NCBI GenBank assembly: GCA_015060325.1
Contig: SUYQ01000003.1
Coordinates: 20,528-84,527 of the forward strand
Source: Bacteroidales bacterium
Lineage (GTDB): Bacteria; Bacteroidota; Bacteroidia; Bacteroidales; UBA932
Direction of reading: 5' to 3'
Length of the DNA: 64,000 nt
Position numbers and translations under genes: made by a program. Every line of letters begins with the position of its first letter. Position 1 is the stretch's first letter. Shown piece after piece: positions 23,827 to 60,589 of the stretch. Under the pieces are notes generated by a model, which saw only the letters and a list, made by a program, of their open reading frames with translations, had not been told where the DNA came from and searched no databases.

Positions 23827-23908
23827 AGATTCTTCGCTGACGCTCAGAATGACAGTGGGAAGCGCTCAGAATGACAGTGGGGAGCGCTCAGAATGACAGT
23901 GGAAAGCG
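23827..23908 (+). repeat. REP-like palindrome AGATTCTTCGCTGACGCTCAGAATGACA plus 22-bp tandem copies of its GTCAT-tagged half
   Basis: CGCTCAGAATGACAGTGG at 23841, 23863 and 23885. Confidence 0.9.
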
Positions 23909-23926
23909 CCCCCAAAGTGGGTGTGG

Positions 23927-24835
23927 TTATTTTACTGACATCGCTGCGATGGCGATTGAATTGAGCTTGGTATCTATGCTGTCAGCGCGGCTGGAAAGCA
24001 CACAAGGAACCTTTGCACCTACAAGTATACCAGCCTGACGGACTCCCTGAACAAGTTTGGAATTGGCCTTATAGAAGACATTCCCGGACTCGATATTAGG
24101 GAAGAGCAGACAGTCTGCATCACCGGCAACAGGACTGACCAGTCCCTTGATCTGGACAGACTCCATGTCAATGGCAACATCCAGAGCGAGAGGGCCATCA
24201 GCAATGCAGCCCTTGATCTGACCACGGTCAACCATCTTTGAAAGCAAGGCAGCCTCAAGAGAAGCCGGCTGACTTGGAAGCACCTGCTCTGTAGCAGCGA
24301 TTATCGCAACCTTCGGAGTCTCAACTCCTACAGCCTTGGCAGTCTTTACAAGACACTCCATGATGGTCTGCTTCTGCTTGAGATCCGGTGCCGGAATAAC
24401 GGCAACGTCCCCCACAAACAGCAGCTTATGGTAAGAAGGAATCTCTAGTGTAGTACAATGGGTCAATGTACCCTTAGGAGGCAGAAGACCTGTCTCCTTG
24501 TTAAGGATTGCACGAAGGAACTTGTCTGTTGAGCAAAGGCCCTTCATAAGGAAGTCACCCTCGCCGTCACGTACCATCTGTACAGCCTGAGCAACCGACG
24601 GAAGTTCTGAAGGATTGTGGACGATTGTGAACCTTGAGATGTCAATTCCCTCTTCCTTGCATGCCTGTGCGATCATAGCCTCGTCACCCACGAGGGTAAC
24701 GTCTGCAAGTCCAAGTTCCACAGCCTTTCCTGCTGCAGCTACTGTATGACCGTCTACAGCCCATGCTGCAACCATTCTTTTTCTTATGCCCCTGCCGCTG
24801 AGCTCGGCATAAATCTGTTCGAAATTCGTAAACAT
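23927..24835 (-). CDS. ptb: Phosphate butyryltransferase
   Basis: LMKG, GPLALDVAI, LFPNIESGNVFYK, LSSRADS; adjacent to buk. Confidence 0.9.
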   Translation of the reverse strand: MFTNFEQIYAELSGRGIRKRMVAAWAVDGHTVAAAGKAVELGLADVTLVGDEAMIAQACKEEGIDISRFTIVHNPSELPSVAQAVQMVRDGEGDFLMKGLCSTDKFLRAILNKETGLLPPKGTLTHCTTLEIPSYHKLLFVGDVAVIPAPDLKQKQTIMECLVKTAKAVGVETPKVAIIAATEQVLPSQPASLEAALLSKMVDRGQIKGCIADGPLALDVAIDMESVQIKGLVSPVAGDADCLLFPNIESGNVFYKANSKLVQGVRQAGILVGAKVPCVLSSRADSIDTKLNSIAIAAMSVK

Positions 24836-24851
24836 ATGCGTATAAACAAAT

Positions 24852-24874
24852 AGTCCCCGGCACAGCCGAGGACT
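24852..24874 (-). terminator. Hairpin between ackA and ptb
   Basis: AGTCCCCGGC-ACA-GCCGAGGACT followed by a T-rich run on minus. Confidence 0.5.
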
Positions 24875-24884
24875 GATGACATGA

Positions 24885-26096
24885 TTATTTTCCGTTCTGA
24901 ACGATATTCATGGTATCGCGTGCAATCATCAGCTCTTCATTTGTAGTGATGAGAGCAACCTTTACCTTCGAATCAGGAAGAGTCAGGATAGTATCGACTC
25001 CCCTTACTGCATTCGCATCGTAATCGAACTTGACACCAAGGTAAGTCAGATTCTCACACACTCTGCGACGCACGCGTGTGTTGTTTTCACCGATTCCACC
25101 TGTAAATACGATGAGATCGACACCGTTCATCGCAGCAGCATAAGCACCGATGTACTTTGTGATCTCATACGTGAGTTTCTTCAAGGTGAGCTTAGCCTTA
25201 GGATTACCGTCGTTTGCAGCAGCATCGAGGTCACGGGCATCTGATGACACGCATGAAAGGCCGAGGAATCCGCTCTTCTTGTTGAGAACCTTGCTCATCT
25301 CAGCAGCAGAAAGGCCTTCCTTTTCCTGGATGTAAGTGACAACCTCCGGGTCGATGCTTCCGCTTCGGGTACCCATGATAAGGCCTTCAAGCGGAGTGAA
25401 TCCCATAGTGGTATCTACAGACTTGCCGTTCTCAACAGCAGTAATGGAGCTGCCGTTTCCGAGGTGACATGTGATGATCTTTGAAGACTCCAGGTCGAGA
25501 CCGGCGAACTTTGCGCCCTTTGCAGAGACGTATTTATGGCTTGTACCATGGAAACCATAACGGCGCACGCCGTATTTCTCATAATACTCATACGGAAGAC
25601 CGTACATATAAGCATATGCAGGCATTGTCTGGTGGAATGCCGTATCAAACACACCTACCTGCGGAACAGACGGAAGGACATCTGAAACCGCCCTGATTCC
25701 GAGGATGTTTGCAGGGTTGTGAAGCGGTGCAAATACAGAGCATTTCTCAAGCTGCTCGACAACCTTGTCGGTGATCAGCTGGCTGCATACAAATTCCTCT
25801 GCGCCATGAACAACACGATGGCCCACTGCATCAATCTCTTCAAGCTTGGAAAGGACGCCATGATCCTTGTCAAGAAGAGCATCAAGGACAGCCTTGATTC
25901 CGACTGTATGATTCTCGATCGGCATTTCCTTCTCAAATTTTTCCTTTCCGCTTGCCTGGTGCTTGAGACAGCCTGTCTCCATACCGATTCTTTCAACGAG
26001 TCCCTTAGCCATGAGATCGTACACCTCATCGTTCTTCATATCAAGAAGCTGATATTTGAGCGAAGAGCTTCCGCAATTAAGTACTAGAATGATCAT
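24885..26096 (-). CDS. ackA: Acetate kinase
   Basis: LNCGSSSLKY, GHRVVHG, FDTAFH, YGFHGTSH, HLGNGSS, FTGGIGEN, TNEEL. Confidence 0.96.
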   Translation of the reverse strand: MIILVLNCGSSSLKYQLLDMKNDEVYDLMAKGLVERIGMETGCLKHQASGKEKFEKEMPIENHTVGIKAVLDALLDKDHGVLSKLEEIDAVGHRVVHGAEEFVCSQLITDKVVEQLEKCSVFAPLHNPANILGIRAVSDVLPSVPQVGVFDTAFHQTMPAYAYMYGLPYEYYEKYGVRRYGFHGTSHKYVSAKGAKFAGLDLESSKIITCHLGNGSSITAVENGKSVDTTMGFTPLEGLIMGTRSGSIDPEVVTYIQEKEGLSAAEMSKVLNKKSGFLGLSCVSSDARDLDAAANDGNPKAKLTLKKLTYEITKYIGAYAAAMNGVDLIVFTGGIGENNTRVRRRVCENLTYLGVKFDYDANAVRGVDTILTLPDSKVKVALITTNEELMIARDTMNIVQNGK

Positions 26097-26191
26097 TTCA
26101 AATATTGTTTTTTATGTTTATTTCAGATTTTCAAGTGCATCTTTGCAAAGTTACAAAAATTATAACTATTTTAGCAAAAAATAGGAACGAA

Positions 26192-27292: not shown

Positions 27293-27299
27293 CCAGATC

Positions 27300-28352: not shown

Positions 28353-28444
28353 ATATCTAGGGCAAAGTATTTGTGCAAAGGTAGTGGATTTTCAAATTAA
28401 AATATGCATCTTTGCATGTTTATCATTAAAATTTAAAGTATCAA

Positions 28445-30144: not shown

Positions 30145-32670
30145 TCAATTTAAGTATGACTGAAGGATTTCTTCAAGTTCCTGAAGATCCGCAACCAGTA
30201 CACGCCTTGGTCTTGAGCCATCCTGTGGTCCGACGATACCGGCAGCCTCCAGCTGGTCCATAACCCTTCCAGCTCTTGCATAACCCATACCAAGTTTTCT
30301 CTGTAGGTCTGAAGTCGAACCTTTCTGAGTGGTAACAACCATACGTGCTGCATCCTCGAACATCGCATCAATGTTCTGCATGTCGATGTTACCGCCGCCG
30401 GCCTCACCGTCCTGAGCGACAGGGACAGGCAGATAATATGGAGTATTGCTACACTGCTTATAGTTTGTCTGCTGGCCGATGAAGTTGGTAATATCCTTGA
30501 TTTCCTTCATATCCACAAACGCGCACTGCACTCTTTCCATCGATACACCGGCATAGTAAAGCATATCTCCCTTACCGATCAGATTCTCAGCACCGGTCGT
30601 ATCAAGAATCGTCTTGGAATCCGCACCAGAAAGGACTCTGAAAGCAATTCGTGTCGGGAAGTTGGCCTTGATCAGACCTGTAATCACGTTCACCGAAGGA
30701 CGCTGAGTTGCGATGATCACGTGTATACCGGCTGCCCTACCCTTTTGAGCCAGGCGAATGATGGATGACTCGATATGCTTGGCTGACTTCTTGGCTTCTG
30801 CACCTGAACCACCGGCCATGACCAGATCAGCATACTCATCAATGACTACGACTAGATATGGCATGTATTTGTGACCTTCGGTCGGAAGAAGAAGACGTTT
30901 CTTATACTTCTCATTATAATTCTTGAACCCGTTCACGCCTGCATCAGCAAGAAGCTTATAACGCTCGTCCATCTCTATGCAGAGGGCATTAAGCACCTGC
31001 TCTGCCTGCTGAGGCGTCTTAACGATAGACTTTTTACGTTCATCATCCTCACTCTGAGCAGTAGGGAGCACGGCAAGGTAATGCTTGAGGAGAGATGCGT
31101 ATGCCGTAAATTCAACCATCTTAGGGTCAATGAATACAAATTTCAGCTCTGAAGGATGCTTCGCATACAGCAGAGAAGCAATGATCACGTTCAGACACAC
31201 CGACTTACCCTGCATGGTAGCACCAGCCACAAGAAGGTGCGGAGCCGATGTAAGATCGAAGGTCTTCACTTCTCTGGTAATGGTGTATCCTATAGAAATA
31301 GGCAGTTCCGCCTTTGTGTTACAGAATGATGCAGAGCTGAGCATGGTCTTCAGAGGAACAAGCGACGGCTTGTCATTAGGGACCTCAATACCCACACTGT
31401 CGTGCAGCATCACAACGCGTACACCACTGGTGCCAAGAGCAATCGCAATCTCCCTGTGCAATTTTTCAATTGAGGAAACACGGACTCCGGATGCCGGAAA
31501 GACCTTATACAAAGTAACAGTCGGGCCGACAGATGCATCAATATCAAGAATGTTGATCTTATAATTCTCCAGAGTATTACGGATCCTCCCTTTGTTTATC
31601 TCAAGTTCATTGTCACTGACAACATACTGCTTTCCCGCATAATCTCCCAGAAGATCCAGGGACGGAGCAACAAAACTTTCGAATCCCTCACGATGATCAA
31701 TAGGAGGCAACTCGGCAGTTGAGACAAGCGGATCCAAGACTGTAGCATCTGCTGCAACAGGTTCATCCTGCGGCACGGATGGCACAGGGGGCGCAGGTGG
31801 CACTGGCGGCACAGGTGATACTGGCGGCGCAGGTGATACTGGAGGCGCAGGTGGCACTGGAGGCACAGGTGGTACTGGAGGCGTTGGAGTCACTGGAGGC
31901 GTTGGAGCAGGCTCATCTGCAACAGGAAACACATGGTAGCCATAGCCTCCATCCTGATTTCCACTTTCATCCTTAGCTCCATCTTCCTTATCCTTTGCGT
32001 CCTCCTCGTCAGCATCTGCCGACATAAAGACGTCAAGATCCTTGGACATCTTGCTGCCGACCTTGTCTCCTGCATTGGCAAACCAGCTGGCAAACCGTCC
32101 ATTCACGCATAAAAGCCATACAGCAGCAAGCAGGAAGACCAGAAATCCGGTGATGATATTACCGAATGTGGCTGAAAGCATAGCGATCACAGCATGTCCG
32201 GACGCCCCGCCCAGTCCCCTGCCAAACTCAGATCCGGAACCGAAGAGCGACAGCACCATCGAGACTATAAATGCCAGACTGACAGCAATAAAGGTCAAAC
32301 GAAGAACCTTGATGTCCGATTTCCAGAAAAAGATGCGTATGGCATAGAAACCAAACAACAATATCAGAACCAGACTGCCGATTCCGAGGCAATCGGCAAT
32401 AAGGAAATGAGCCCATTTCAAACCAGCTGCACCAGCTACATTCGCAACATCATCACCTGAAACAGACGAATGGCCTATAAGACTCTGGTCCTCTTTCCAG
32501 GTGAACAGGTAAGAAACTGATGCCACCAGAGAAAAGATGACAAATATAAACAAAGCGACACCCAGACCACGGATAATCAATGCCTTCTTCTCCGGGGTCA
32601 TATTAAAGGAAGAGCCTTTTTGCCTCTTCTTGCTTTTAGCGGTTTTCTTCGTTTGCTTCTTCGCAGCCAT
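30145..32670 (-). CDS. ftsK: DNA translocase FtsK
   Basis: N-terminal 4TM region; PHLLVAGATMQGKS, VIDEYADL, LAQKGRAAGIH, gamma domain LQRKLGMGYARAGR. Confidence 0.95.
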   Translation of the reverse strand: MAAKKQTKKTAKSKKRQKGSSFNMTPEKKALIIRGLGVALFIFVIFSLVASVSYLFTWKEDQSLIGHSSVSGDDVANVAGAAGLKWAHFLIADCLGIGSLVLILLFGFYAIRIFFWKSDIKVLRLTFIAVSLAFIVSMVLSLFGSGSEFGRGLGGASGHAVIAMLSATFGNIITGFLVFLLAAVWLLCVNGRFASWFANAGDKVGSKMSKDLDVFMSADADEEDAKDKEDGAKDESGNQDGGYGYHVFPVADEPAPTPPVTPTPPVPPVPPVPPAPPVSPAPPVSPVPPVPPAPPVPSVPQDEPVAADATVLDPLVSTAELPPIDHREGFESFVAPSLDLLGDYAGKQYVVSDNELEINKGRIRNTLENYKINILDIDASVGPTVTLYKVFPASGVRVSSIEKLHREIAIALGTSGVRVVMLHDSVGIEVPNDKPSLVPLKTMLSSASFCNTKAELPISIGYTITREVKTFDLTSAPHLLVAGATMQGKSVCLNVIIASLLYAKHPSELKFVFIDPKMVEFTAYASLLKHYLAVLPTAQSEDDERKKSIVKTPQQAEQVLNALCIEMDERYKLLADAGVNGFKNYNEKYKKRLLLPTEGHKYMPYLVVVIDEYADLVMAGGSGAEAKKSAKHIESSIIRLAQKGRAAGIHVIIATQRPSVNVITGLIKANFPTRIAFRVLSGADSKTILDTTGAENLIGKGDMLYYAGVSMERVQCAFVDMKEIKDITNFIGQQTNYKQCSNTPYYLPVPVAQDGEAGGGNIDMQNIDAMFEDAARMVVTTQKGSTSDLQRKLGMGYARAGRVMDQLEAAGIVGPQDGSRPRRVLVADLQELEEILQSYLN
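31771..31915 (-). repeat. 9/18-bp coding repeat encoding a Pro-rich FtsK linker (PPVTPTPPVPPVPPVPPAPPVSP...)
   Basis: Repeated GGCACAGGTGG/TACTGG units. Confidence 0.85.
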
Positions 32671-46569: not shown

Positions 46570-47514
46570 TTATAGTGACTTCAGACAGTCGGTAACATTC
46601 TTCTCGATGCGTGCCGAGATGTTCTCACCCTCAGCCTTTACGAACTTCTCACCGATGATGTTTTCATAGAGCTCGATGTAGCGCTCTGTGATGCCGTCCA
46701 CGATCTCGTCTGTCATCTCAGGCACCTGCTGTCCCTCCTGACCCTGGAAACCGTTGGCCATCAGCCACTCACGAACAAACTCCTTCGAGAGCTGCTTCTG
46801 CTTTTCACCCTTTGCGAGACGCTCCTCATAGCCCTCTGCGTAGAAGTAGCGTGATGAGTCAGGAGTATGGATCTCGTCCATGAGATAGATCTTTCCGTCC
46901 TTCTTTCCGAACTCATATTTCGTATCCACAAGGATAAGCCCCATCTTGGCAGCGATCTCCGTTCCTCTCTGGAAGATGGCTCTTGTGTAGGCTTCGAGCT
47001 GCTCATAATCTTCCTTGCTTACGATACCCTGAGCGATGATCTCCTCCTTTGAGATGTCCTCATCGTGACCTTCTGCGGCCTTGGTAGTAGGAGTGATGAT
47101 AGGCTGAGGGAACTTCTGGTTCTCTACCATTCCTTCCGGCATCTCAACGCCGCATATCGTGCGCTTGCCGGCCTTGTACTCTCTCCAGGCGTGGCCTGAA
47201 AGATATCCACGGATAACCATCTCGACCTTAAAAGGCTCGCACTTGTGACCCACAGTCACCATCGGATCCGGAACTGCTATCTTCCAGTTCGGAAGGATGT
47301 CTGCAGTCGCATCAAGAAACTTGGCAGCAATCTGATTCAGCACCTGTCCCTTGAAAGGGATTCCCTTAGGGAGCACCACATCAAATGCTGAAATACGGTC
47401 AGACACGACCATTACCAGATAATCATCACCGATGCTGTATACGTCACGCACCTTACCTACATAGTGGCCGTTCTGGCCAGGAAAATTAAAATCTGTCTTT
47501 ACGATTGCTTCCAT
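46570..47514 (-). CDS. purC: SAICAR synthase
   Basis: [46 protein letters not shown]; true start MEAIVKT at 47514. Confidence 0.96.
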
Positions 47515-47561
47515 GTCTATATTATTATTTTCTTTTATTTCGGATTCTGTTTCCGGTTCCC

Positions 47562-47666
47562 CACTGTCATTTCGAGCGAGCGAAGCCCCACTGTCATTTC
47601 GAGCGAGCGAAGAGAGTCGAGACAATCGACGAAGTCGCTTGAGCGTCAGCGAAAGAATCTCCAGCC
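47562..47666. repeat. REP-like mosaic: two 27-bp CACTGTCATTTCGAGCGAG units plus an inverted AGATTCTTTCGCTGACGCTC element
   Basis: Units at 47562 and 47589; 47641-47660 is the reverse complement of the 23827 element head. Confidence 0.88.
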
Positions 47667-47681: not shown

Positions 47682-48704
47682 TTATTCGTACTCCGTAATC
47701 TTCAACCGGTATTTATTGCTACCCAGATTCTGAAAATACCGGGGAACGTCCTGCATCTCCTGTCCGATAATCCCGGTCATCCCCGACCTGACAGTTCCGG
47801 TCATCCCCGGTTTGACATCCCCCGTCATCCCCGGCTTGACCGGGGATCTCCTCCACTGCCCGTCAACACAGAACAGCACCGGATCCTTCACGCCCTCAAG
47901 TTTAAACCCAAGCTGCTCATATACAGCGCCTTCTGACCACTCCAAGTCAGCGTAGCTCATCACATCATCCGGATGCACATCATCTATAAAAGCCTTGAGC
48001 ATCTTGCCCATGCCGCCATTGATCCTCACGCCAGGGAGGGATGCATACCGTGTCCATTCATAAGACCGTATCGTCTTCTCCCCCTTCTGCCACTTTCGGG
48101 CATTGGAAAACGTAGCCACCGCCACCAGACTCCCCGGCTCTACCCAACTGTCATTTCGAGCAAGCGAGTCCACACTGCCATTTCGAACAATCGAGTCCCC
48201 ACGGTCATTTCGAGCGAGAGAGCCTACACTGTCATTTCGAGCGAGCGAAGCGAGTCGAGAAATCTCCAGCCACCTGCCAGTATACCGCTTCAAATACAGC
48301 CCATACCGATACCGGCACGCAGCATCACCATAGCTATGATTTTCACTCAGGAATGCCGCCGCAGTCTCCTTATCGATCTTCCTTACCTCGCAATTGCGGG
48401 CATACATCGATATGAAGATCTCGAGATGCGCCAAAAGCCTGGCTTTCATCATTTCCGGCTGACGCCTCCAGCGATCTTCAGTGATGATCACTGCTGCTGA
48501 TCCTTCTTGACTCAAAACAGCCAGCAAATTATTGATAGTTCTTGCATCCTCGCGAGCCTGCTCCTCATTTTCAGCCTGGACATCCCACGGCACCACACAC
48601 TTCCGTCCTACACTCAGCACTTCCACCCCGCAGCGGGCTTCCGCCACACAGTCAAACGCGTTAGCACAAAGAAAATCACGTATTTCGTCTGCCAAAAGAG
48701 TCAT
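47682..48704 (-). CDS. Hef/Mom-like GNAT-fold protein with a degenerate Vsr/DUF559-like N-terminus and two in-frame repeat insertions
   Basis: IITEDRW; [16 protein letters not shown]; LVAVATFS; YEWTRYAS; [13 protein letters not shown]; [16 protein letters not shown]. Start MTLLAD lies 5 nt after a TAATTTTG box (48710-48717). Confidence 0.65.
47776..47849 (+). repeat. Palindrome GTCATCCCCGGCTTGACCGGGGATCT with two further 24-bp half-copies, in frame within the CDS
   Basis: GTCATCCCCG at 47776, 47800 and 47824; encodes VKPGMTG repeats. Confidence 0.93.
48146..48265 (+). repeat. Palindrome CACTGTCATTTCGAGCGAGCGAAGCGAGTCGAGAAATCT with three further 27-bp half-copies, in frame within the CDS
   Basis: Units at 48146, 48173, 48200 and 48227; 120 nt = 40 codons (SLARNDS repeats). 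Confidence 0.93.
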
Positions 48705-48917
48705 GACCGCAAAATTACACAAAATCTTCGTTTGCCGTTGTATTTGCAGACAAATCCTGCAATCTGTGGCACAGAAAAAATTGAAAATCAGGCAATTGCC
48801 TAGCACTGCGTGCTCCCCTTTGGCGGCACGCAAATGTAGCTATACACCTAACACACAACGAATTACGCGCCACTCTCATTTATATAGTCATCCAACCCTT
48901 TGACCACCAACAACTTG

Positions 48918-48955
48918 ACTACCAACACGGTGGGTCATTTTGCCCCACCGTGTTG
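48918..48955. repeat. Hairpin CAACACGGTGGG-TCATTTTGC-CCCACCGTGTTG; 48918-48949 is a perfect inverted copy of 51191-51222
   Basis: Direct comparison of the two positions. Confidence 0.9.
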
Positions 48956-49058
48956 ATAGTTAATGCGCTGACCGATAGCGCTTTATGTGTCCATCAGATT
49001 GTAGGCATTTCGTTCATCTGGACATTTAGTGGGAGAGATTGGGAAATCAAGTTCAATA

Positions 49059-49185
49059 GTGAACATTTCGGGTGGCAGGGAAGGCAACAGCCAGGCGCGA
49101 GGAGAGCCCTTCAAGGGTAGGGCTCCCCGCAGCGCTTGAGCTGTAGTCGTCGGAGAACGTATATTCCGACGACGGTGCCGTGCAT
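49059..49185 (+). ncRNA. Repeated structured element (predicted four-way junction), copy 1
   Basis: Near-identical to 50948-51074 and to the reverse complement of 59892-59993; four stems predicted by eye. Whether it acts as RNA or DNA is unknown. Confidence 0.45.
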
Positions 49186-49336
49186 ATCGGTATGTAGGCC
49201 ACGATAGACCAATGATACCGGATGGGCAATATTACACATGACAGCGCAATACAACGCGTTAACTGTCAACCACTTACGTCTTTATTATGACATCAAAGCG
49301 CACGGTATCAACAATATAACATCCTGATACTCAGAC

Positions 49337-49750
49337 AGTTATATTGCGCAACCGATGAGACATTTAATATGAAAGAAGCTGACAGCAAGGGAGGTTGAAT
49401 CCTTGTTGTCAGCTTCATGTTATCAGTTCATGTTGCCTGATCATGTTACTTGATCATGTTGCCAGCTCCTGGTGCGAGCTTCATGTTTTTGCAGAACGGT
49501 ATGTTCTAGAAAGACTGGAATGTCGACCATTTCGTGTTGGCCTCGGCTGCTGTCTCAACGCCATCCGGAAGATTCACGAAGAAGTCAAATCCGGTCCAGG
49601 ACTCGATCTGGTCTACTGAGACTGCGTAGTTTGTGTAGGAATCCGAGTAGGTCTTATGCTCGAACCAGAAACCTATAGCACTTACACCCGGCAGTTCAAG
49701 CCAGGACTTGCCAGACACAGCCGGCAGCTGTGCAGCGACAGTCGTGAATG
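49337..49750 (-). repeat. Diverged direct duplicate of 51770-52067 plus 52626-52700 (nuclease 3' end, terminator and downstream flank)
   Basis: Shared CAGTTATATTGCGCAACCGATGAGACATT and AAGAAGCTGACAGCAAGG hairpin; homologous coding segments. Confidence 0.92.
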
Positions 49751-49766
49751 ACACCACCGGGCCCAT
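49506..49766 (-). pseudogene. Orphan endonuclease fragment with an in-frame internal deletion of the catalytic core
   Basis: SWLELPG joined directly to VSAIGFWFEHK; lacks the 186 codons (equivalent to 52068-52625) that include RGH; C-terminal 58 aa are 51/58 identical to the intact copy. Confidence 0.85.
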
Positions 49767-49803
49767 ATCAGTCTTTATAAAACTAACACAGCATGCTGAT
49801 TAC

Positions 49804-50736
49804 TTAAATTCTTGAGATCAATGCCTCAACCTGCTCAACTGTAAGCATAGTCAGCTTCGCCACTTGCTGCACATCCATTCCAGCTGCAAGCATATTAACA
49901 GCCACTTCTGCACGACCCTCAGCACGACCCTCAGCACGACCTTCTGCACGACCTTCTGCAAGTCCCTTCTCACGACCCTCTGCAAGTCCCTTCTCACGAC
50001 CTTCTTCCAGTCCGGTCTTAATCGCATAGGCAAATTGATTTCTCAAATCTCTTTCTGTTGTCATTTTGCTCAATATTAAAGTTCGTAAATCATCACTGCT
50101 CATTATCAGTTCACCTGTATCGAATATCTTATCAAAGACATCATGAGTCAAAGCTTTGGGACGTCCCTGCAACAGATGCATGTTCTTCAAGCAGAAATAC
50201 ATTCCTTCAAGTATATTGCCATCAAGCTCATCTTCGGTCTTCTTAAACTTTGGCAATTCAAGAAAAATGTATGTCAGTCTATTGGATAAAAGTCTATGGT
50301 GTTCTTGTTCCAACAACCTGTATACGGTTTTGACATTCGTCAGGCCCTCATTCTGTTTGAGGGTAAAATCCAAAATACTGATTACATAAATCGGACAAAA
50401 GTCATAACTGTCCTGTGCAGAATCAACTTGTTTCAGAACCTGATGCATAGAATAGTAGAGCATCCTCTCTGCATACCATTCCTGCTTTCGATTCTGAAGT
50501 TCAACAATAATTCTAGAACCATCATCTGTCTTACAGAACAAATCATAGATTGATGTTTTACGGTCACGAATATTCGGATGCATTTCCTTATCCATAAAAT
50601 CAACATCCACAATCTTCCTGTCATCAATCACCTGATTGAGAAACTCAATCATGACAGTCTTCGTAGACTCCTGTCCAAAAACCAGTTTGAAGGCATCATC
50701 GACCATCAAATCCGGATACTTTACATCTTCATGCAT
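49804..50736 (-). CDS. Rpn-family recombination-promoting nuclease / putative transposase (PDDEXK_2)
   Basis: DDAFKLVFG, IYDLFC.TDDG.RIIVELQN, ERMLYY, FLELPKF; C-terminal EGREKG/EGRAEG repeats; AVNML helix. Confidence 0.92.
   Translation of the reverse strand: MHEDVKYPDLMVDDAFKLVFGQESTKTVMIEFLNQVIDDRKIVDVDFMDKEMHPNIRDRKTSIYDLFCKTDDGSRIIVELQNRKQEWYAERMLYYSMHQVLKQVDSAQDSYDFCPIYVISILDFTLKQNEGLTNVKTVYRLLEQEHHRLLSNRLTYIFLELPKFKKTEDELDGNILEGMYFCLKNMHLLQGRPKALTHDVFDKIFDTGELIMSSDDLRTLILSKMTTERDLRNQFAYAIKTGLEEGREKGLAEGREKGLAEGRAEGRAEGRAEGRAEVAVNMLAAGMDVQQVAKLTMLTVEQVEALISRI
49906..50007 (-). repeat. 12/24-bp coding repeats in the Rpn C-terminus
   Basis: EGREKGLA x2, EGRA x4. Confidence 0.9.
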
Positions 50737-50947
50737 AAATTTTAATTTTAGATTAAACACTCCCAATACGGGCTAATAAAAATTTATGCATCCTCCCCTC
50801 AACGATTCCCCACAAATGTGCAAAAAAATCCGCACCAAGTCAACACACTGATACAGATTTTTCTTTTTATTTAACAAACTTTTTCTAAATCTTTAAATTT
50901 TTTCTTTTTTTTAATCTCCTCTGTGGTCTTCATTCCGGGTCACGTTG

Positions 50948-51074
50948 GTGAACATTTCGGGTGGCAGGGAGGGCAGCAGCAAAGTGCGAGGAGAGCCCTT
51001 CAAGGGTAGGGCTCCCCGCAGCGCTTGAGCTGTAGTCGTCGGAGACCGTATATTCCGACGACGGTGCCGTGCAT
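50948..51074 (+). ncRNA. Repeated structured element, copy 2
   Basis: See copy 1; differences are concentrated in the 5' flank and loops. Confidence 0.45.
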
Positions 51075-51148
51075 GTGTTCAGGGACTCTAGGATACGCAA
51101 ATACAACTATTGAACAAGACGACAGATAAGACAGCAGGCAAGATAATG

Positions 51149-51764
51149 GACATGTAAGTAGCTGATGATCAGCAAGATGAGTATTATGAGGGTGGGGCAA
51201 AATGACCCACCGTGTTGGTAGTTAGATAGTTGATAATCAGGAGGTTGCATGACCAAGAGAAGGCATTGAGTTCAACGATAATTTCGGTTGATTGGCTTTC
51301 CCGTCCATGAAAACGGGCAATTTCGTGGACGGGATACATCAAATTGATGGCCCCATCCATGAAAAGGACTGTTTTTGTGGATGGCGAAGTTCTGTTTAAA
51401 GTTCACGTCTATAGAAAGGGTCTATTTTGTGGAGAGAAAGACAGGACATTAGACATGTAGGTAGCTGATAGTCAGCAAGATGAGTACCGAGAGGATGGGG
51501 CAAAATGACCCACCGCATTGGTAGTTAGATAGTTGATAATCAGGAGGTTGCATGACCAAGAAAGGCATTGAGTTCAACGATAATTTCGGTTGATTGAACT
51601 GCGCCCCATCCATGAAAAGGGCTGTTTTTGTGGATGGCGCAGTTCTGTTTAAAGGTCACGCCTATAGAAAGGGTCTATTTTGTAGAGAGAAAGACAGGAT
51701 ATTAGACATGTAGGTAGCTGATAGTCAGCAAGATGAGTACCGAGAGGGTGGGGCAAAATGACCC
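51149..51764 (+). repeat. Non-coding tandem repeat: units of 303 and 253 bp plus a 60-bp partial, each with several hairpins
   Basis: GACATGTA(A/G)GTAGCTGAT starts at 51149, 51452 and 51705. Confidence 0.95.
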
Positions 51765-51806
51765 TCGGCCAGTTATATTGCGCAACCGATGAGACATTCA
51801 ATATGA

Positions 51807-51865
51807 AAGAAGCTGACAGCAAGGGAGGTTAACCTTGTAGGTTAAATCCTTGTTGTCAGCTTCTT
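51807..51865. terminator. Long hairpin downstream of the nuclease ORF (second copy near 49374-49416)
   Basis: AAGAAGCTGACAGCAAGG ... CCTTGTTGTCAGCTTCTT. Confidence 0.75.
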
Positions 51866-51887
51866 GTTTTTTGCAGAACGTTATGTT

Positions 51888-53006
51888 CTAAAAAGACTGG
51901 AATGTCGACCATTCAGCGTTGCTTTCAGCTTCTGCCTCAACAGTATCCGGAAGATTCACGAAGAAGTCAAATCCGGTCCAGGACTCGATCTTGTCTACAG
52001 AGACAGCATAGTTCGTGTAGGAGTCCGAGTAGGTCTTATGCTCGAACCAGAAACCTATAGCACTTGCGCCTGTTACCGTGCTGCCGGACTTATTGACCTT
52101 CAGGACGACCTTGTAGAAGTAGTTCGGAACCGGAACGCTCTTGGTGTCATCCTGGGCAGTCGTGTATGTTATCGACTTCGACTCCCCGACCTTATTGAAG
52201 GCCACACCGGTCACGATGTAGATCTCTTCGCTCTTCGCAATCGACTGGAGAGCGGCTTCAAGGTTCTGCCATACTCCTCCGTTGAAGTTGTTCTGGATCT
52301 GCGGAACAGAGTTGGTCACATAGAAGGTCTGCAGCTGCATCGTCTCGTTGCCGTTACGGGATGCATTCGGAATCATATGACCGCGCGAGTAGCTGTCATT
52401 GTAGCTGCTCGAACGCAGATCCACCTGATAGGACTGATCGATGCTCGGGCTGTAACTCCACTTGCTCGGGCGGCTCAGACTGCCCATATGGGACGAGTTC
52501 AGATGATATGCCGTCCACAACGAAGTGTAGGTCGACTTATCATAACAATGGGTGTAGTTGCGGTTGGCGTCAGTGGTCGAAGATCCATAATAGGTATTAA
52601 CGACGTAATCAGTTCCGCTCACCGCTCCCGGCAGCTCAAGCCAGGACTTTCCTGACACGGCAGGCACCTGTGCAGCGACAGTCTTGAATGACGTCACAGA
52701 GCCCGTGAAGGTCTGACCGCCAACCACAACATAAGACTGGACATAATATGTCGTGCCGGCAGACAGTCCCTCAACATCTGCACTGAATGAAGATGCCGTA
52801 CCGCTGTAATTGTCACATGTAATCGTTTTTGTCAAAGACGAGGAAGAAGTTCCATATCGGAATCCCACCTCCGTGGGCTCAGAAGACGCTTCCGTATACG
52901 AAGCAGACAGGCTGGCGCCTGTCTGCTCTATGTTCGTCACGGTAGTCGTCGTTACTGTTGCACCCACTGCGGGCTCATCACCCCCGACGCCTCCGCCGGA
53001 TGATGG
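51888..53006 (-). CDS. Fn3-like plus DNA/RNA non-specific endonuclease (His-Me finger) module; no signal peptide; in frame behind the upstream UGA
   Basis: SRGHMIPNA, FYVTNSVPQ..FNGGVWQNLE, YIVTG, VPNYFYKV. The frame is open from 53006 (PSSGGGVGGDEP linker); first possible own start is GTG at 52967. Confidence 0.88.
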   Translation of the reverse strand, partial: PSSGGGVGGDEPAVGATVTTTTVTNIEQTGASLSASYTEASSEPTEVGFRYGTSSSSLTKTITCDNYSGTASSFSADVEGLSAGTTYYVQSYVVVGGQTFTGSVTSFKTVAAQVPAVSGKSWLELPGAVSGTDYVVNTYYGSSTTDANRNYTHCYDKSTYTSLWTAYHLNSSHMGSLSRPSKWSYSPSIDQSYQVDLRSSSYNDSYSRGHMIPNASRNGNETMQLQTFYVTNSVPQIQNNFNGGVWQNLEAALQSIAKSEEIYIVTGVAFNKVGESKSITYTTAQDDTKSVPVPNYFYKVVLKVNKSGSTVTGASAIGFWFEHKTYSDSYTNYAVSVDKIESWTGFDFFVNLPDTVEAEAESNAEWSTFQSF

Positions 53007-55753: not shown

Positions 55754-55909
55754 CTATTCGAACCAGTTATTGTTACCGGTTTCCCAATCTTGTGCATCGA
55801 AATCTCCCGATGCACACAGCACTCCTTCGCTCAAAACTTCGAGCGTTTTTACGGAAGGGGTTTCGTATGCTGAAACCTCTCCCATGAATTGTTTCCTTTC
55901 TAGGGTCAT
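55754..55909 (-). CDS. 51-aa small protein, MTLERKQFMGEVSAYETPSVKTLEVLSEGVLCASGDFDAQDWETGNNNWFE
   Basis: Manual translation; ends TAG-TAG-TAA; lies between the TAAATTTG box (55991-55998) and the fimbrillin gene. Confidence 0.75.
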   Translation of the reverse strand: MTLERKQFMGEVSAYETPSVKTLEVLSEGVLCASGDFDAQDWETGNNNWFE

Positions 55910-55990
55910 AATTAATTGATATTTAGTTTGTTAATATTTTCTACACACATTCCACGCGCGCATCGCATGCACAACGCGCACATTAAGCGG

Positions 55991-55998
55991 CAAATTTA
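55991..55998 (-). promoter_or_regulatory. -7 box of the sORF-fimbrillin-nuclease unit
   Basis: TAAATTTGC on minus. Confidence 0.65.
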
Positions 55999-56084
55999 GA
56001 CTATAAATTCCTGATAATCAAGAAAAATCTCCGATAGTTGAAAAACTTTCGGAGATGTCACATAATATGGCACATAGACCGGTA

Positions 56085-57071
56085 TTATTCTGCAAGATAT
56101 TTTTTAAACGAAATCCAGTCGGACGCAGTCTCAGAAACCGTCTCTATCGGGTCAGGCAGACCGGCAAAAAGATCGAGTCCAGTGAGCTTTTCAATATCGT
56201 CGACGGTGACCGTGAATTCAGAATACGAATGTCCCTTGAGGTCTTCGTGTGGGAGAAGAAATCCTATGGTCCTGGCCTCAACCACCCCATCACTTCCCCG
56301 CTCAACCTTAAGCAGAGCCTTCCAATAGCTTTCGGGCACAGGAAGAGTCTTGGAGTCGTTCTTATTGACTATGGTCCTGACGGCACTGAGCTCATCACCC
56401 TGAGAGAAAATGGCTCCCGTCACGACATAGAGCGTATCTTCCGGAGGCACTGCTGAGCGCACCGCTTCCTCCAGTTTAGCCCATATCCCTCCGTTGAATC
56501 CATGCTGGATCTGAGGAGTCATGTTTGTCGAAAAATAGGTCTGAGCCTGCATTTCAGGGACTGCACTGCGGTCTGCATTCGGGATCTGGTGGCCTCGGGC
56601 ATAGAAGTTCTTCGGGTAGTTTGCAGTCGGGACAGATACGCCATAGCCGCTGCGTACATTGGTCTGGATGACCCTGGAAAGCTGCGGATCATACCCCCAG
56701 GTCTCCTCACGTCCCTTGGATGTGTGCGCGCTGCAGAGAGGATATGCCACCCAATGGGCCGCATACAGGTCCTGGTCGTAACAGAGGGTGTAGTTGCGCT
56801 GGAGCGTTCCATTCATATGCGCTCTATGGGTCACGATATGACATCCCTCCATATCCCCCTTTCCCTGAGGCAGTTCCAGCCAGTCAGGAGTTCCGGGGCC
56901 AGCAGATGACGCCATAGCCTTGCGAGCCTTTCCGGCTCCGTCGTCAGACGGACCGTTCCCGGCATCCTGGGCAGAAGCCGATTGTGACTTGCTGCCAAAT
57001 ACGACAAAAAGCAGCAACACCAGGCTCAGGCCTAGTATCACTGCTATAGTTATTCTGGTACTTTTCTTCAT
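56085..57071 (-). CDS. Membrane-anchored DNA/RNA non-specific endonuclease
   Basis: N-terminal TM helix; NYTLCYD..AAHWVAY, YARGHQIPNAD, YFSTNMTPQ..FNGGIWAKLE. Confidence 0.93.
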   Translation of the reverse strand: MKKSTRITIAVILGLSLVLLLFVVFGSKSQSASAQDAGNGPSDDGAGKARKAMASSAGPGTPDWLELPQGKGDMEGCHIVTHRAHMNGTLQRNYTLCYDQDLYAAHWVAYPLCSAHTSKGREETWGYDPQLSRVIQTNVRSGYGVSVPTANYPKNFYARGHQIPNADRSAVPEMQAQTYFSTNMTPQIQHGFNGGIWAKLEEAVRSAVPPEDTLYVVTGAIFSQGDELSAVRTIVNKNDSKTLPVPESYWKALLKVERGSDGVVEARTIGFLLPHEDLKGHSYSEFTVTVDDIEKLTGLDLFAGLPDPIETVSETASDWISFKKYLAE

Positions 57072-57094
57072 ATCAATTTACGAGGCAGGGGTAA

Positions 57095-57195
57095 AGATCC
57101 TTCGCTTCGCTCAGGATGACAGTGAGGGGCTCAGGATGACAGTGAGGGGCTCAGGATGGCAGAGAGGGGGCTCAGGATGACAGTGAGGGGCTAAG
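57095..57195 (+). repeat. REP-like AGATCCTTCGCTTCGCTCAGGATGACA plus 20-bp tandem half-copies
   Basis: GCTCAGGATG(A/G)CAG(T/A)GAGGG at 57109, 57129, 57149 and 57170. Confidence 0.92.
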
Positions 57196-58975
57196 GCTGG
57201 ACAAACGCGAGGATCTCACCCTTGGCAACCATGTCGCCCTGCTTGGCGCATACAGCGATTATGCGTCCGTCAACCGCAGGGACGACCTCCTCCATTCCGT
57301 AGTAGGTCTGGACGTGGCCCATGGCGGTGCCGGCAACAACCTTGGTGCCGGCAACAGGCGCCGTCGAGGCGTCGTCCACGTCGATCTGCCAGAGGATCTG
57401 GCCCTTTACAGGAGCCTGGACAGGAACTGCAGACGGGTATTTCCGTACGATCTCATCCACATCGAACTTCGGCATCTCGACCACAGGGCGCTCGATGACA
57501 ATCGGCGCTCCGGCCTTGGCCTTCGCCGCCTCAAGGTCAGCGCGGAAGCGTTCCTTCGCAACGCCGCTCCTGTAGTCACGATACTGCCTCTCGTGCATAG
57601 CGAACTCGAAGAGTTCTTCTTCGTCCTGTCCGACATCCCATCCCTCTTCCTTCATCATTGCGCGGAACCTGTCGAGCTCGTTCGGGAATGCATCCTGCGG
57701 GTTGCCCGTGTAGAACTCGAGACCCTTCTGCTTTGCGAGCTCCACGATCTCCGGTGCGAGCGGGCCCGGAAGGGTTCCCATCTTGCCGAGGATCATGTTC
57801 CAGGTATCCTTGTCGATGGTTGTCCAGCGAGGCTGGCCCTTTAGGATGTTCATGAGGTTCATCAGTGCGGTGTTCTTGACATACTGGCTGAACGGGGTCA
57901 CGAGCGGCGGATAGCCCAAGCGTGGCCATACATATTCAACTTCCTGGAAGAGCATGACCATCAGCTGGTCGAGGCTGAGCTCGGCCTTGCCCTGGGCGCG
58001 GAGCGAAGCGTTGATCGCGCCGTGGAAGCCCTTGAGGTCGGCCATCATCGAGCCCATCATGCCGCCCGGGAGGCCGCAGCCGACCAGGAGCGAGCTCATG
58101 TGCGAGTTGTTAGGGTCGATCCAGTAGCCGAGGAAGTCGTCCATGAACTTCTGGGTCAGCGCCCTGACTTCCATGTAGGCGTTCATGTTCAGGTCTTTGA
58201 CCGTGAAACCGTCGGCCTTGAGCATCTCGCGGATGGTGATCACGTCAGGATGCACCTTGCCCCATGAAAGAGGCTCTACTGCCACGTCGAGGTAGTCGGC
58301 ACCGGCGCGTGCGACCTCGAGCATCGAGGCCGGAGAGAAGCCGGGGCCACAGTGGCCGTGGTACTGTACTGCTATATGCGGATATTTCTTCTTTATCTGC
58401 CTGGTGAGTTCGCCCAGGAAGGTAGGGCGGCCGATGCCTGCCATGTCCTTGAGGCAGATCTCGTCGCAGCCGTATTCAACTACCTTGTCGACCACGCCCA
58501 TGTAGTATTCGACCGTGTGGACCGGAGAGTTGGTGATCGAGAGGGCTACCTGTGAGATCATGCCGCCTTTCTTGGCGTATTCGACGCTGAGGCGGAGATT
58601 GCGGTGGTCATTCAGACCGCAGAACGATCGCGAGATGTCTGTTCCCTGTGCCTTCTTCACCTTGTACATGAGTTCGCGGACATCGGCCGGAACCGGATTC
58701 ATGCGGAGTGCGTTCAGACCGCGTTCGAGCATGTGCGTCTGGATGCCTGCCTTGTGGAAAGGGGCAGTCCATTCACGGACAGCCCTGTTAGGGTTCTCAC
58801 CGAAGAGGAGGTTGACCTGCTCGAATGCACCTCCGTTGGTCTCAACCCTGTCGAAACATCCCATATCGATGATTGCCGGAGCAACTTCCTTCAACTGACT
58901 GACAGTAGGAACATATCGTCCTGATGACTGCCACATGTCCCTGTACACAAGGGAGAATCTGATTTCTTTTGCCAT
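57191..58975 (-). CDS. Pyruvate carboxylase subunit B / oxaloacetate decarboxylase alpha-like carboxyltransferase with biotinyl-like C-terminus
   Basis: RDMWQS, ETNGGA, CLKDMAG, HGHCG, PGGM, PPLVTPFSQ; start reassigned to MAKEIRF. Confidence 0.88.
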   Translation of the reverse strand: MAKEIRFSLVYRDMWQSSGRYVPTVSQLKEVAPAIIDMGCFDRVETNGGAFEQVNLLFGENPNRAVREWTAPFHKAGIQTHMLERGLNALRMNPVPADVRELMYKVKKAQGTDISRSFCGLNDHRNLRLSVEYAKKGGMISQVALSITNSPVHTVEYYMGVVDKVVEYGCDEICLKDMAGIGRPTFLGELTRQIKKKYPHIAVQYHGHCGPGFSPASMLEVARAGADYLDVAVEPLSWGKVHPDVITIREMLKADGFTVKDLNMNAYMEVRALTQKFMDDFLGYWIDPNNSHMSSLLVGCGLPGGMMGSMMADLKGFHGAINASLRAQGKAELSLDQLMVMLFQEVEYVWPRLGYPPLVTPFSQYVKNTALMNLMNILKGQPRWTTIDKDTWNMILGKMGTLPGPLAPEIVELAKQKGLEFYTGNPQDAFPNELDRFRAMMKEEGWDVGQDEEELFEFAMHERQYRDYRSGVAKERFRADLEAAKAKAGAPIVIERPVVEMPKFDVDEIVRKYPSAVPVQAPVKGQILWQIDVDDASTAPVAGTKVVAGTAMGHVQTYYGMEEVVPAVDGRIIAVCAKQGDMVAKGEILAFVQP

Positions 58976-59130
58976 AATAGTTATAATGAGTGCTAACAAA
59001 GTTATGCAAAAGAATCCTGACAACGCAAGGGATATCGTAGAAAATAAGCGTAATATCAGATTATGGGGTCAAATACTTTACTGTGGTCAAAAATTTCACC
59101 ACACAGTATTGCAGGTTTGAAAATTTTACG

Positions 59131-59138
59131 TATCTTTG
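59131..59138 (+). promoter_or_regulatory. -7 box of the tRNA-His gene
   Basis: TATCTTTG about 19 nt upstream of the tRNA. Confidence 0.65.
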
Positions 59139-59156
59139 CAGTCCTTAAACCAACAT

Positions 59157-59231
59157 GGTGCCCATAGTTCAGTTGGTTAGAGCGTCAGATTGTGGTTCTG
59201 AATGTCGTGGGTTCGAATCCCACTGGGCACC
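59157..59231 (+). tRNA. tRNA-His(GUG), G-1 encoded, CCA not encoded
   Basis: Acceptor GTGCCCA/TGGGCAC; anticodon arm TCAGA-TTGTGGT-TCTGA; T arm GTGGG-TTCGAAT-CCCAC; discriminator C. Confidence 0.97.
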
Positions 59232-59236
59232 CTGGA

Positions 59237-59278
59237 AAACTCCTTATGATCGTCCGTTCATAAGGAGTTTCTTTTTTT
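59237..59278 (+). terminator. Intrinsic terminator after tRNA-His
   Basis: AAACTCCTTATGA-N8-TCATAAGGAGTTT followed by a T-run. Confidence 0.9.
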
Positions 59279-59744
59279 CGCGGTTGTTTTGCATTCTGTC
59301 AGACCGTCCGACATTAAAAATGCGAAAAAGTTGCCGGACGGTGCCCAAAATAGGTGTTTTATGTCAGAAATAGGGACCGTCCGACATGAATTTGGGCATT
59401 TTGATGCCGGACGCTTTTCCGGCCGACATGTGAGACCTGTCGGAATACGGTTTTCCGTAGCATCGCTTGGATGAAGCGATATGGATATGCAACCACCTGG
59501 TAGAGTGCGGCTTACCTATAAACAGATTTGCAGATATGCTGGTCGGAATGCAGCTCTACCCCCACGATACCTTTGGGCTCTACTGAGAATCCACGGATGT
59601 TTTGTCCTCCCGTCCATGGTTTTCCACTTTTCATGGACGGCTGCCACATATATCTACACGACGCCTCACTGCCACACCTCCAGAATGCTCCATTGCCTTT
59701 ATTTCGCCTTGTTCAATCGACTTTGTCGATTTCAACCGAGCCCA

Positions 59745-59881
59745 CCCTGTAATTTCTTTCGCCTTACTTAAGCGGAAAGCCGATTGCGACCGAGCCACCT
59801 TCTTGTGTGCCCCTGTCATTTCTTTCGCTGGCGCTCAAGCGGCAAGCCGATTGCGACCGAGCGGAGCGAGTGGAGAAATCT
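59745..59881 (+). repeat. Extended GTCAT...GAGAAATCT element with a 66-bp upstream partial duplicate
   Basis: CCCTGT(A/C)ATTTCTTTCGC...AAGCCGATTGCGACCGAGC at 59745 and 59811. Confidence 0.8.
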
Positions 59882-59891
59882 GGTATGTTGA

Positions 59892-59993
59892 GCGCGGCAC
59901 CGTCGTCGGAATATACGGTTTCCGACGACTACAGCGCAGGCGCTGCGGGGAGCTCGACCCTGAAGGGCTCTCCTCGTGCCTGGCTGTTGCCTT
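59892..59993 (-). ncRNA. Repeated structured element, copy 3 (inverted, more diverged)
   Basis: Reverse complement matches 49081-49181, with stem-preserving changes. Confidence 0.45.
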
Positions 59994-60203
59994 TTAGCCC
60001 ATATATATGTTTGCGCACGTGCTCGAAGGGCGGTTTGGGTTAATGGAAACGGAGTGCTTGGTCATGAAATGCCTCAAACTCGGCCAAGCGGTGTGGATTT
60101 TATGCTGAAAATGCTTTTTTGTAGTACCGCTTGTGCCTAAATCGCTCGAAACTCGTCCAAGCGGTTTACTTTGCTGACTCGGAGTTCTGCGGGGTATCCG
60201 TAA

Positions 60204-60426
60204 AGATCCTTCGCTGCGCTCAGGATGACAGTGGTGACAAAGCTCAGGATGACAGTGGTGACAAGACTCAGGATGACAGTGGTGACAAAGCTCAGGATGA
60301 CAGTGGTGACAAAGCTCAGGATGACAGTGGTGACAAAGCTCAGAATGACAGTGGTGACAAAACTCAGGACGACAGTGGTGACAAAACGCAGGAGGACAGT
60401 GGTGACAAAACGCAGGATGACAGTGG
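60204..60426 (+). repeat. REP-like AGATCCTTCGCTGCGCTCAGGATGACA plus nine 24-bp tandem units
   Basis: (G/A)CTCAGGATGACAGTGGTGACAAA every 24 bp from 60218 to 60410, degrading distally; a related degenerate element at 60441-60498. Confidence 0.95.
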
Positions 60427-60589
60427 GCGGTCTGTGTTCAAGATCCTCACGTCGCGTCACTCCTCAGGAGAACAGAGAATCGGTCAGGAGGACAGTGATA
60501 AAACAGCTGTCCCGTCGGAGAGGAAAGCGTTTGTTGTTCAGGTTTCTGCTTTCCGACCGACGGGGACCGGTATTTTCAAATGTATTATA

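Follow-up and report, generated by a model that had tools for sequence, protein, structure and literature searches.

Tag-side arrays of truncated copies beside (T/C)GTC-tagged palindromic elements in a gut Bacteroidales genome

The CGTC-tagged superfamily of repetitive extragenic palindromes (REPs), which includes dRS3 of Neisseria and RPE-4 and RPE-6 of Rickettsia, has been described by Di Nocera, De Gregorio and Rocco (2013, PMC3733652) as single copies, head-to-head dimers and, rarely, clusters of whole units; tandem arrays of half units on the tag side are not mentioned there, and no associated transposase was found for these repeats. CGTC-tagged REPs are common in many phyla, with near-identical 25-mers in unrelated bacteria, and since 2013 they have stood without a known mobilising enzyme or mode of formation. 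GTAG-tagged REPs, together with bacterial interspersed mosaic elements (BIMEs) and REP doublets forming hairpins (REPINs), have been studied along with the REP-associated tyrosine transposases, or RAYTs (Nunvar 2010, PMC2817692; Bertels and Rainey 2011, PMC3116915), and their tag is read by a RAYT, which cuts them (summarised in PMC3733652). The present analysis concerns a 64,000-nt stretch of a Bacteroidales genome (GenBank assembly GCA_015060325.1, contig SUYQ01000003.1, positions 20,528 to 84,527; hereafter the window). Its palindromic elements, found at eight sites, are very probably members of the (T/C)GTC-tagged REP superfamily, and truncated copies have accumulated in tandem next to each of these elements, solely on the tag side; the arrays behave as hypervariable minisatellites whose turnover is concentrated beside the complete hairpin.

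The elements of the window resemble the CGTC-tagged superfamily in their unpaired 5′ tag (CGTC or TGTC), in the A-T pairs at the first two stem positions, in the short unpaired 3′ tail and in their high copy number; as in that superfamily, near-identical copies occur in distant phyla, some copies lie in frame inside genes, and no transposase is associated with them. They differ in the tail, which is CTN here and CCA there, and in the commonest type, which here combines a 5+2+2 stem that includes G.A positions with a loop of 3-4 nt, in place of the 8-9-bp stem and 4-5-nt loop described there. Arrays of half units were not found described in the literature searched by 12-mers of the elements, which returned unrelated primer matches only, and by keywords, which returned known REP papers only. 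With the GTAG-tagged REPs, BIMEs and REPINs the shared features are a hairpin with a conserved 5′ tetranucleotide, read in that case by an HUH tyrosine nuclease, and arrays that vary between strains, a variability for which RAYT action has been proposed as the driver in BIMEs. BIMEs, however, are made of whole REPs in alternating orientation, whereas direct half elements on one side are seen here, and RAYT genes are flanked by their own REPs, whereas no RAYT-like gene is linked to the present elements. A half unit ahead of a complete REP was also found at GTAG REPs of the E. coli type, at nine loci in the whole genome collection and with one half unit each (L413-L421, from E. coli, Shigella, Escherichia sp., Citrobacter, Kluyvera and others). 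Half-unit duplication is thus not exclusive to the GTC family, but it appears far rarer at GTAG REPs, a comparison for which the denominator is the author's estimate and the left half only was scanned. At an E. coli/Shigella GTAG locus the right half, GCATCCGGCAATCA, is duplicated as well.

Tagged elements and one-sided arrays

All eight sites share one plan on the strand that reads GTCAT: a variable number of units, each consisting of a leader, the (T/C)GTC tag and the AT-arm with or without the loop, is followed by one complete element ending in AT-CT. The tagged strand is plus at four sites and minus at the other four. Six arrays were recorded by Tandem Repeats Finder, and direct inspection of the sequence showed the remaining two, a 66-bp pair (59745-59880) and a degenerate one (60441-60499). 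Among the minus-strand sites, the one at 23827 (23828-23912) holds the complete element GTCATTCTGAGCGTCAGCGAAGAATC at 23828-23853 and two more 22-nt tag-side units (23841-23909, period 22, 3.1 copies), and the one at 57095 (57096-57200) the complete element GTCATCCTGAGCGAAGCGAAGGATC at 57096-57120 and three more units of 20-21 nt (57109-57200, period 20, 4.3 copies). The longest, at 60204 (60205-60433), has the complete element GTCATCCTGAGCGCAGCGAAGGATC at 60205-60229 with about eight more 24-nt units (60218-60426, period 24, 8.7 copies), and is followed at 60441-60499 by a degenerate complete element (60441-60475) with one degenerate 20-nt tag-side unit.

On the plus strand, the site at 47559 (47559-47662) begins with two exact 27-nt units (47559-47612, period 27, 2.0 copies), the second of which runs into a mosaic complete element ending in GAAAGAATCTCC. 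The arrays at 47772-47848 and 48146-48264 consist, respectively, of two 24-nt units before the complete perfect hairpin GTCATCCCCGGCTTGACCGGGGATC at 47824-47848 (47772-47840, period 24, 2.9 copies) and of three 27-nt units before the complete element GTCATTTCGAGCGAGCGAAGCGAGTCGAGAAATC at 48231-48264 (48147-48248, period 27, 3.8 copies). At 59724-59880 a mosaic complete element of 66 nt (59815-59880) is preceded by a 66-nt unit with the mutated tag GTAAT and by an older short unit, TGTCGATTTCAACCGAGC. Neither a solo element nor a tail-side array was found in the 64-kb window, and the one-sidedness on the GTCAT side that a preliminary description of this DNA had noted was confirmed at 8/8 sites. 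That description took each unit to be the tagged half plus a few flanking bases; in the source genome the flank is largely a conserved leader, CCCACT, which precedes even the distal-most unit. The mosaic elements, at 47566-47662 and 59815-59880 and in the related loci L119, L120, L122 and L124, are made of joined halves of different subfamilies; a module, TTTCGCTGRCGCTCAAGCG...CGATTG, is found within ATTTC-type elements in one orientation or the other, and the mosaics at one site differ between strains.

The structure of the family was examined in 225 elements anchored on the central core alone. The arms are complementary in 220/225, with at least six different arm pairs, so the structure is supported by covariation. 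The tag is NGTC in the same number, 220/225 (TGTC in 183, CGTC in 26), and it is TGTC, CGTC or GGTC in all elements of the window. The tail begins with C in 219/225, being CTC, CTT or CTG in 175 and CCN in 41, where the superfamily consensus is CCA. Every element reads GTC-AT...AT-C, with A-T pairs at the first two stem positions, as the superfamily requires. The arm sequence varies with the subfamily (ATCCT, ATTCT, ATTTC and ATCCCCGG). The four palindrome cores of the preliminary description are not equivalent: the ATCCCCGG type alone is a strong hairpin, equally so on both strands (-9.3 and -9.4 kcal/mol, z -3.3, by nearest-neighbour DNA energies), while the other three are weak, with five Watson-Crick pairs, two G.A positions and two further pairs, and by the same energies the GAGCG-type hairpins reach -2.7 kcal/mol on both strands, with z close to 0. 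The ATCCCCGG-CTTGA-CCGGGGAT type, with an 8-bp stem and a 5-nt loop, fits the 8-9 bp and 4-5 nt of the superfamily; the GAGCG-N-AGCGA type (five pairs, two G.A positions, two pairs and a 3-4-nt loop) lies outside these sizes, as do the mosaic elements of 34-66 nt. The link to the CGTC-tagged superfamily proposed earlier is borne out, the elements fitting the account of Di Nocera 2013 (PMC3733652). Their copy number is high: in contigs of gut metagenomes, element k-mers reach some 80-150 times the depth of their flanks, and the window has eight sites per 64 kb.

The same architecture is widespread. A scan for two tandem left halves returned more than 117 loci in Acidobacteriota, Eremiobacterota, Chloroflexota, Firmicutes, Bacteroidales, Gemmatimonadota, Proteobacteria and others, nearly always with the complete hairpin as the final unit. 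Since such a scan is biased to tag-side arrays, four checks were made without selection on arrays. The 218 other complete elements in the loci of that scan gave 57 tag-side arrays and at most three genuine tail-side duplications; 80 related Bacteroidales loci fetched via the carboxylase protein, with about eight true elements, gave five and none. Among 118 perfect-palindrome elements from many phyla, fetched by the whole element, there were 26 tag-side arrays (arrays occur on about 22% of elements in this set), one genuine tail-side case (L292) and one whole-element tandem (L219). Complete scans of 2.9 million viral contigs gave 24 tag-side matches in 16 loci and no genuine tail-side match, the right-half pattern having matched at four loci that all carry one unrelated 18-nt coding repeat without a hairpin. 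The tag-side polarity of the arrays is therefore real, strong and shared across phyla, and strand-asymmetric folding is not needed for it: the ATCCCCGG hairpin is equally stable on both strands and its arrays are nevertheless one-sided, so the polarity is independent of hairpin strand asymmetry. An origin of the asymmetry in the G.A pairs or in a GCGAAGC mini-hairpin was rejected on account of the 26:1 ratio at perfect palindromes. This tagged-half bias, about 25:1 and independent of orientation, offers a concrete handle, namely that something reads the tag and acts directionally.

Element orientation is sense to the neighbouring genes at some sites and antisense at others, and the GC skew of the window has a single sign from about 12 kb onward. 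On the evidence of the window the polarity thus follows neither fork direction nor transcription, given the mixed orientations of the elements relative to both. A larger composite repeat is present in nine or more copies on a contig labelled viral (IMG/VR 3300037258_000931, 132 kb; L394-L407), and every copy holds the same two-unit array and a long complete element between short tandem repeats of the CAGGGATCAG type, which indicates that arrays can also spread inside larger repeats.

Turnover beside the hairpin and arrays inside a gene

Copy number differs at every site examined among independent assemblies of the same species. Strains carry 1, 3, 4 and 4 units at 57095, 4, 8 and 9 at 60204, and 2 and 3 at 23827, and at 59745 they hold differing mixes of long and short units: locus L119 has a complete element and a short unit only, and L120 combines a short complete element with two units, one long and the other short. 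At 47559 a simple ATTTC-type element with two units is found in L122, and an untagged solo element and a different insertion in L124, where the whole array has been lost by recombination between the short repeats GGAGATG and GGGGATG. Pattern scans of metagenomes for further strain alleles gave 0 and 1 hits. In L119 a second 60204-type module in the same orientation, with three units and a degenerate element, lies just after tRNA-His (window 59340-59690), where it replaces about 330 bp; whole array modules can therefore be copied elsewhere.

The changes are not spread evenly along the arrays. Between the window and L118, one proximal unit differs at 57095. Over 28 arrays of at least four units from many genomes, the mismatch to consensus rises with distance from the hairpin, from 0.036 and 0.038 in units 0 and 1 to 0.064, 0.125 and 0.162 in units 2 to 4, and the correlation holds when the distal-most unit is left out (Spearman 0.28, p 0.003). 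That distal units are more mutated had been noted for two arrays of the window; the gradient is clear at 60218-60426 and is not monotonic at 48146-48265. Both unit turnover and young units are concentrated beside the complete hairpin. Ordinary slippage had been expected to give arrays equally on either side and no divergence gradient; what was found is one-sidedness across phyla and a gradient that is significant over the 28 arrays, so the earlier proposal withstands the test set for it.

A series of alleles comes from a conserved gene on the minus strand (47682-48704, 340 aa), which hosts two in-frame arrays and belongs to a large, well-conserved family of 2053 homologues without a Pfam domain. 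The array at 47772-47848 lies in the C-terminal part of the product and encodes ...PVKPGMT(GxVxxGMT)n, of which the hairpin-coded PVKPGMT segment is retained even in homologues of about 65% identity. The array at 48146-48264 encodes (xxSLARNDS)n in a loop, at a place where insert-free homologues read YTGKRGESG-ISPGTLVAVATF. Sixteen protein alleles of the species cluster have 3-8 units in the latter array and 0-10 extra units in the former, and the frame is always kept; filtering for frame thus operates on arrays inside genes. The distal-most units are common to nearly all alleles, and the closest alleles differ at the hairpin end: the alleles P0129, P0004 and P0124 have 0, 1 and 2 extra proximal units above the same three distal units, and P0131 equals P0005 with a three-unit block duplicated at the proximal end. 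Tagged elements can in this way create variable-length peptide inserts in conserved proteins, and for uncultured gut Bacteroidales the arrays are hypervariable markers at the level of strains.

In-frame insertion of palindromic elements into genes was reportedly described in Rickettsia by Ogata and colleagues in 2000 (cited in PMC3733652). The likeness lies in a palindromic repeat that sits in frame in a conserved protein and adds a peptide in a loop or near a terminus; the intragenic insert here differs in being an array of variable number (3-8 and 0-10 units) that changes from strain to strain. Human minisatellites, in turn, are said by Jeffreys and colleagues (1994) to mutate in a polar manner beside a flanking initiation site. 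Copy-number change and variant reshuffling at one array end, next to a fixed flanking feature, are common to both; those minisatellites depend on eukaryotic meiotic recombination, whereas the flanking feature here is the complete hairpin, which is itself the source of the units. The comparison with leader-polarised arrays that had been suggested for the window did not stand beyond its form. CRISPR and integron arrays likewise have their newest units by a fixed end, but here no foreign spacers or cassettes are acquired, the units copy neighbouring sequence, the spacers within one array are copies of one another, and neither a cas nor an intI gene is present.

Possible origins of the polarity

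On its 3′ side the periodicity most often breaks off where the loop begins, which is position 12-13 in the 25-nt element, but the break may fall as early as within the left arm or as late as positions 17-18, where the right arm has been entered by one or two bases; units of 9 nt (L285) and 8 nt (L228) were found, as were tandems of whole elements (L021, L050, L093 and L219). The 5′ edge falls 0-16 nt upstream of the tag, where solo elements are conserved at position -1 only (T in 60%, C in 25%), with a weak C-rich bias beyond. The junction of the 27-nt pair at 47559 lacks microhomology. In L008, L005 and L228 the units are of unequal length, with the tag-adjacent spacer end in common and a differing reach into the element, which points to repeated independent events. 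Taken together, the tag-side polarity, its presence at perfect palindromes, the divergence gradient and the proximal differences between alleles argue for a directional process tied to the tag and not for symmetric slippage.

The most plausible form of such a process, put forward tentatively, is that the tag directs a break or stall to one strand at the hairpin, after which a short stretch is resynthesised and the strand is rejoined out of alignment. A factor would recognise the folded tagged strand (tag and hairpin) and a strand-specific discontinuity would arise on the 5′ side of the hairpin, either as a polar stall or as a nick, made by a single-strand nuclease of the HUH/RAYT kind that binds hairpins. 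The free 3′ end would be extended into the element over a short and variable distance, usually to the loop, and the old strand would then be rejoined or realigned out of register, leaving one extra copy of the segment between break point and stall point directly by the hairpin. Once two copies are present, repeated events at the same end, with ordinary misalignment of units, could add or remove further units, and the repetition at the hairpin end would place the youngest units next to the hairpin and the oldest ones distally; inside genes, only arrays with a period that is a multiple of three would survive. An analogy is offered by the GTAG REPs, which are cut by a RAYT at the tag and rarely show the same half-plus-full layout. 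It is conceivable, if rather doubtful, that the factor is a widely conserved enzyme, not a linked RAYT, which recognises the (T/C)GTC tag on a folded single strand and repeatedly adds templated half-copies by the hairpin. Such an enzyme would supply the machinery that has been missing for the propagation of CGTC-type REPs and would represent a new way to build polar arrays of DNA, with in-frame variation of protein length as a side effect; gain of units by the hairpin would also be a cheap readout for genetic screens and biochemical fishing.

A number of observations weigh against this tag-directed process. The window holds no candidate enzyme, as had been stated before, and no RAYT (IS200-like Y1 HUH) gene was found in it or was seen to recur in 1.7 Mb of element-bearing loci. 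When 895 open reading frames (ORFs) within 400 bp of elements at 236 loci were clustered, no recurrent neighbour gene emerged beyond orthologous contexts, and no gene was flanked by elements on both sides. Unit edges vary between loci at both ends, whereas HUH nucleases cut defined sites, so that the variation must be put down to locus-specific cleavage sites and a variable run length of the polymerase. Microhomology of 2-3 nt is present at some junctions (AGC at 57095, GCG at the distal junction of 23827), and some arrays are plain short-repeat slippage, as in L285, with GTCATCCCC three times between CCCC runs. The order of variants at 57095 is shuffled (A A A' B versus A B' A A), the allele P0003 has two-unit higher-order repeats, and the direction of replication in the window is read from GC skew alone. 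From the shuffled order and the higher-order repeats it follows that recombination or slippage within arrays is needed besides addition at one end. Of the earlier proposals, the nicking or priming of DNA at the tag by an enzyme therefore keeps its directional, tag-tied part, whereas a precise nick at the unit edge has become unlikely; growth from a fixed end agrees with the closest alleles, which differ by the hairpin, and is contradicted in its strict form by the shuffling, the internal two-unit repeats and the loss of a whole array.

Several of these points are what would be expected of ordinary replication slippage, in which a pause at the hairpin, realignment of the nascent end on microhomology and then normal tandem-repeat instability would build the arrays without a sequence-specific factor. 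The variable edges, the microhomologies, the 9-nt units of L285, the shuffled alleles, the internal block repeats and the deletion between GGAGATG and GGGGATG all speak for it, as does the rare occurrence of the same architecture at GTAG REPs. Slippage should nonetheless act on whichever side the polymerase enters, yet the tag side is favoured about 25:1 even at palindromes that fold equally well; the arrays of the window also lie in both orientations relative to GC skew and transcription, and some 22% of elements bear arrays against nine half-tandem GTAG loci in the whole genome collection. It is, for these reasons, an unlikely explanation of the arrays.

Somewhat less probable still is a polar roadblock, in which a protein bound to the tag and hairpin, in duplex or folded DNA, would stall forks or repair synthesis from one side only and template switching would follow without a nick. 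One-sided fork stalling by a bound protein is known from Tus-Ter. Such a barrier would account for a tag-linked polarity that needs no fixed cut site, the variable unit edges and the turnover by the hairpin, and known REPs bind the host proteins gyrase, Pol I and IHF (as stated in PMC2817692). A stall before a bound protein should, however, lie outside the element, whereas the units enter the left arm and the loop; no binding protein is known for the tagged family, and a one-sided barrier still predicts a dependence on fork direction, which the eight sites of the window do not suggest.

That the arrays are selected functional units, such as tandem protein-binding sites or RNA motifs with the hairpin as terminator or anchor, is improbable. 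The complementary strand CAGGAUG resembles CsrA-binding repeats, several arrays lie directly after stop codons, and within units the mismatch is 2-6% in GTCAT versus 22-30% in the leader, a count that carries detection bias. Copy number nevertheless differs between near-identical strains, down to 0 or 1 unit, the arrays take either orientation to genes and also occur inside coding sequence, the arm sequences differ by subfamily so that no single motif is kept, and a simple terminator scan does not pick the elements, for which reason a terminator function was set aside. An artefact of short-read metagenome assembly can be dismissed almost entirely: an array in one scaffold is interrupted by an N gap (L127) and Logan unitigs break at elements, but the architecture recurs in genomes from isolates and in complete chromosomes (Edaphobacter aggregans DSM 19364, Roseibium, Kaistia, E. 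coli) and in independent assemblies of the same locus, and the frame is kept in many protein alleles.

Other routes were considered and rejected. Cleavage of the SbcCD type 5′ of the loop fits the commonest 3′ break and is insufficient, as it predicts a symmetric outcome at perfect palindromes against the ratio seen. Had new elements inserted themselves within the loops of resident ones, an orphan right half should follow the complete element, which was seen in one case only (L292), and excision footprints with reinsertion were rejected for most arrays because the spacers within an array copy each other. A CsrA-like GGA motif, a likeness to the IncP nick site (ATCCTG) and primase start at GTC fail because the arm varies by subfamily or because one fixed fork orientation would be needed. 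The PDDEXK_2 ORF at 49804-50766 and two secreted Endonuclease_NS genes of the window were looked at as enzyme candidates and show no link to the elements.

Gene context and other repeats of the window

The source genome is that of a gut Bacteroidales near Candidatus Cryptobacteroides: proteins of the window are up to 95% identical to those of metagenome-assembled genomes from goat, sheep and other herbivore guts, labelled Bacteroidales or Candidatus Cryptobacteroides, and the sequencing runs that contain the window sequence are faecal and gut metagenomes. The G+C content of the window is 45-55%, most genes lie on the minus strand, and tRNA-His (59158-59232) was the sole match of an Rfam search. 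The element at 23828-23912 is flanked by ptb (23927-24835) and, on the other side, by buk (22684-23799), and the site at 47559 is just upstream of purC (46570-47514, minus strand). The array at 57096-57200 begins right after the stop codon of a carboxylase gene (57191-58975) and lies upstream of an Endonuclease_NS gene for a secreted nuclease (56085-57071). The element at 59724-59880 is downstream of tRNA-His, and those at 60205-60433 and 60441-60499 are downstream of upp (60590-61243).

Several other repeats were noted in the window. The region 48900-52700 is a mosaic of long dispersed repeats with segments 89-95% identical, in which fragments of an Endonuclease_NS gene are duplicated (49486-49766 versus 51868-52704); the PDDEXK_2 (Rpn-like) ORF of this region has a 12-bp coding repeat, (AEGR)n, at 49905-50013, and related strains have two PDDEXK_2 genes here. 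A second family of small palindromic repeats (ACCGTCCGACA ... TGTCGGACGGT), whose presence varies by strain, is found at 59300-59480 and, in L124, upstream of purC. A coding tandem repeat of 9/18/54 bp (GGxGGxGG-like) lies at 31770-31907 within an ORF of 841 aa (30145-32670). At 11489-11955 a 144-bp tandem repeat of 3.2 copies, 98% identical, has a palindrome of its own, CCCTTTCCTCAGGAAAGGG, and is unrelated to the tagged elements.

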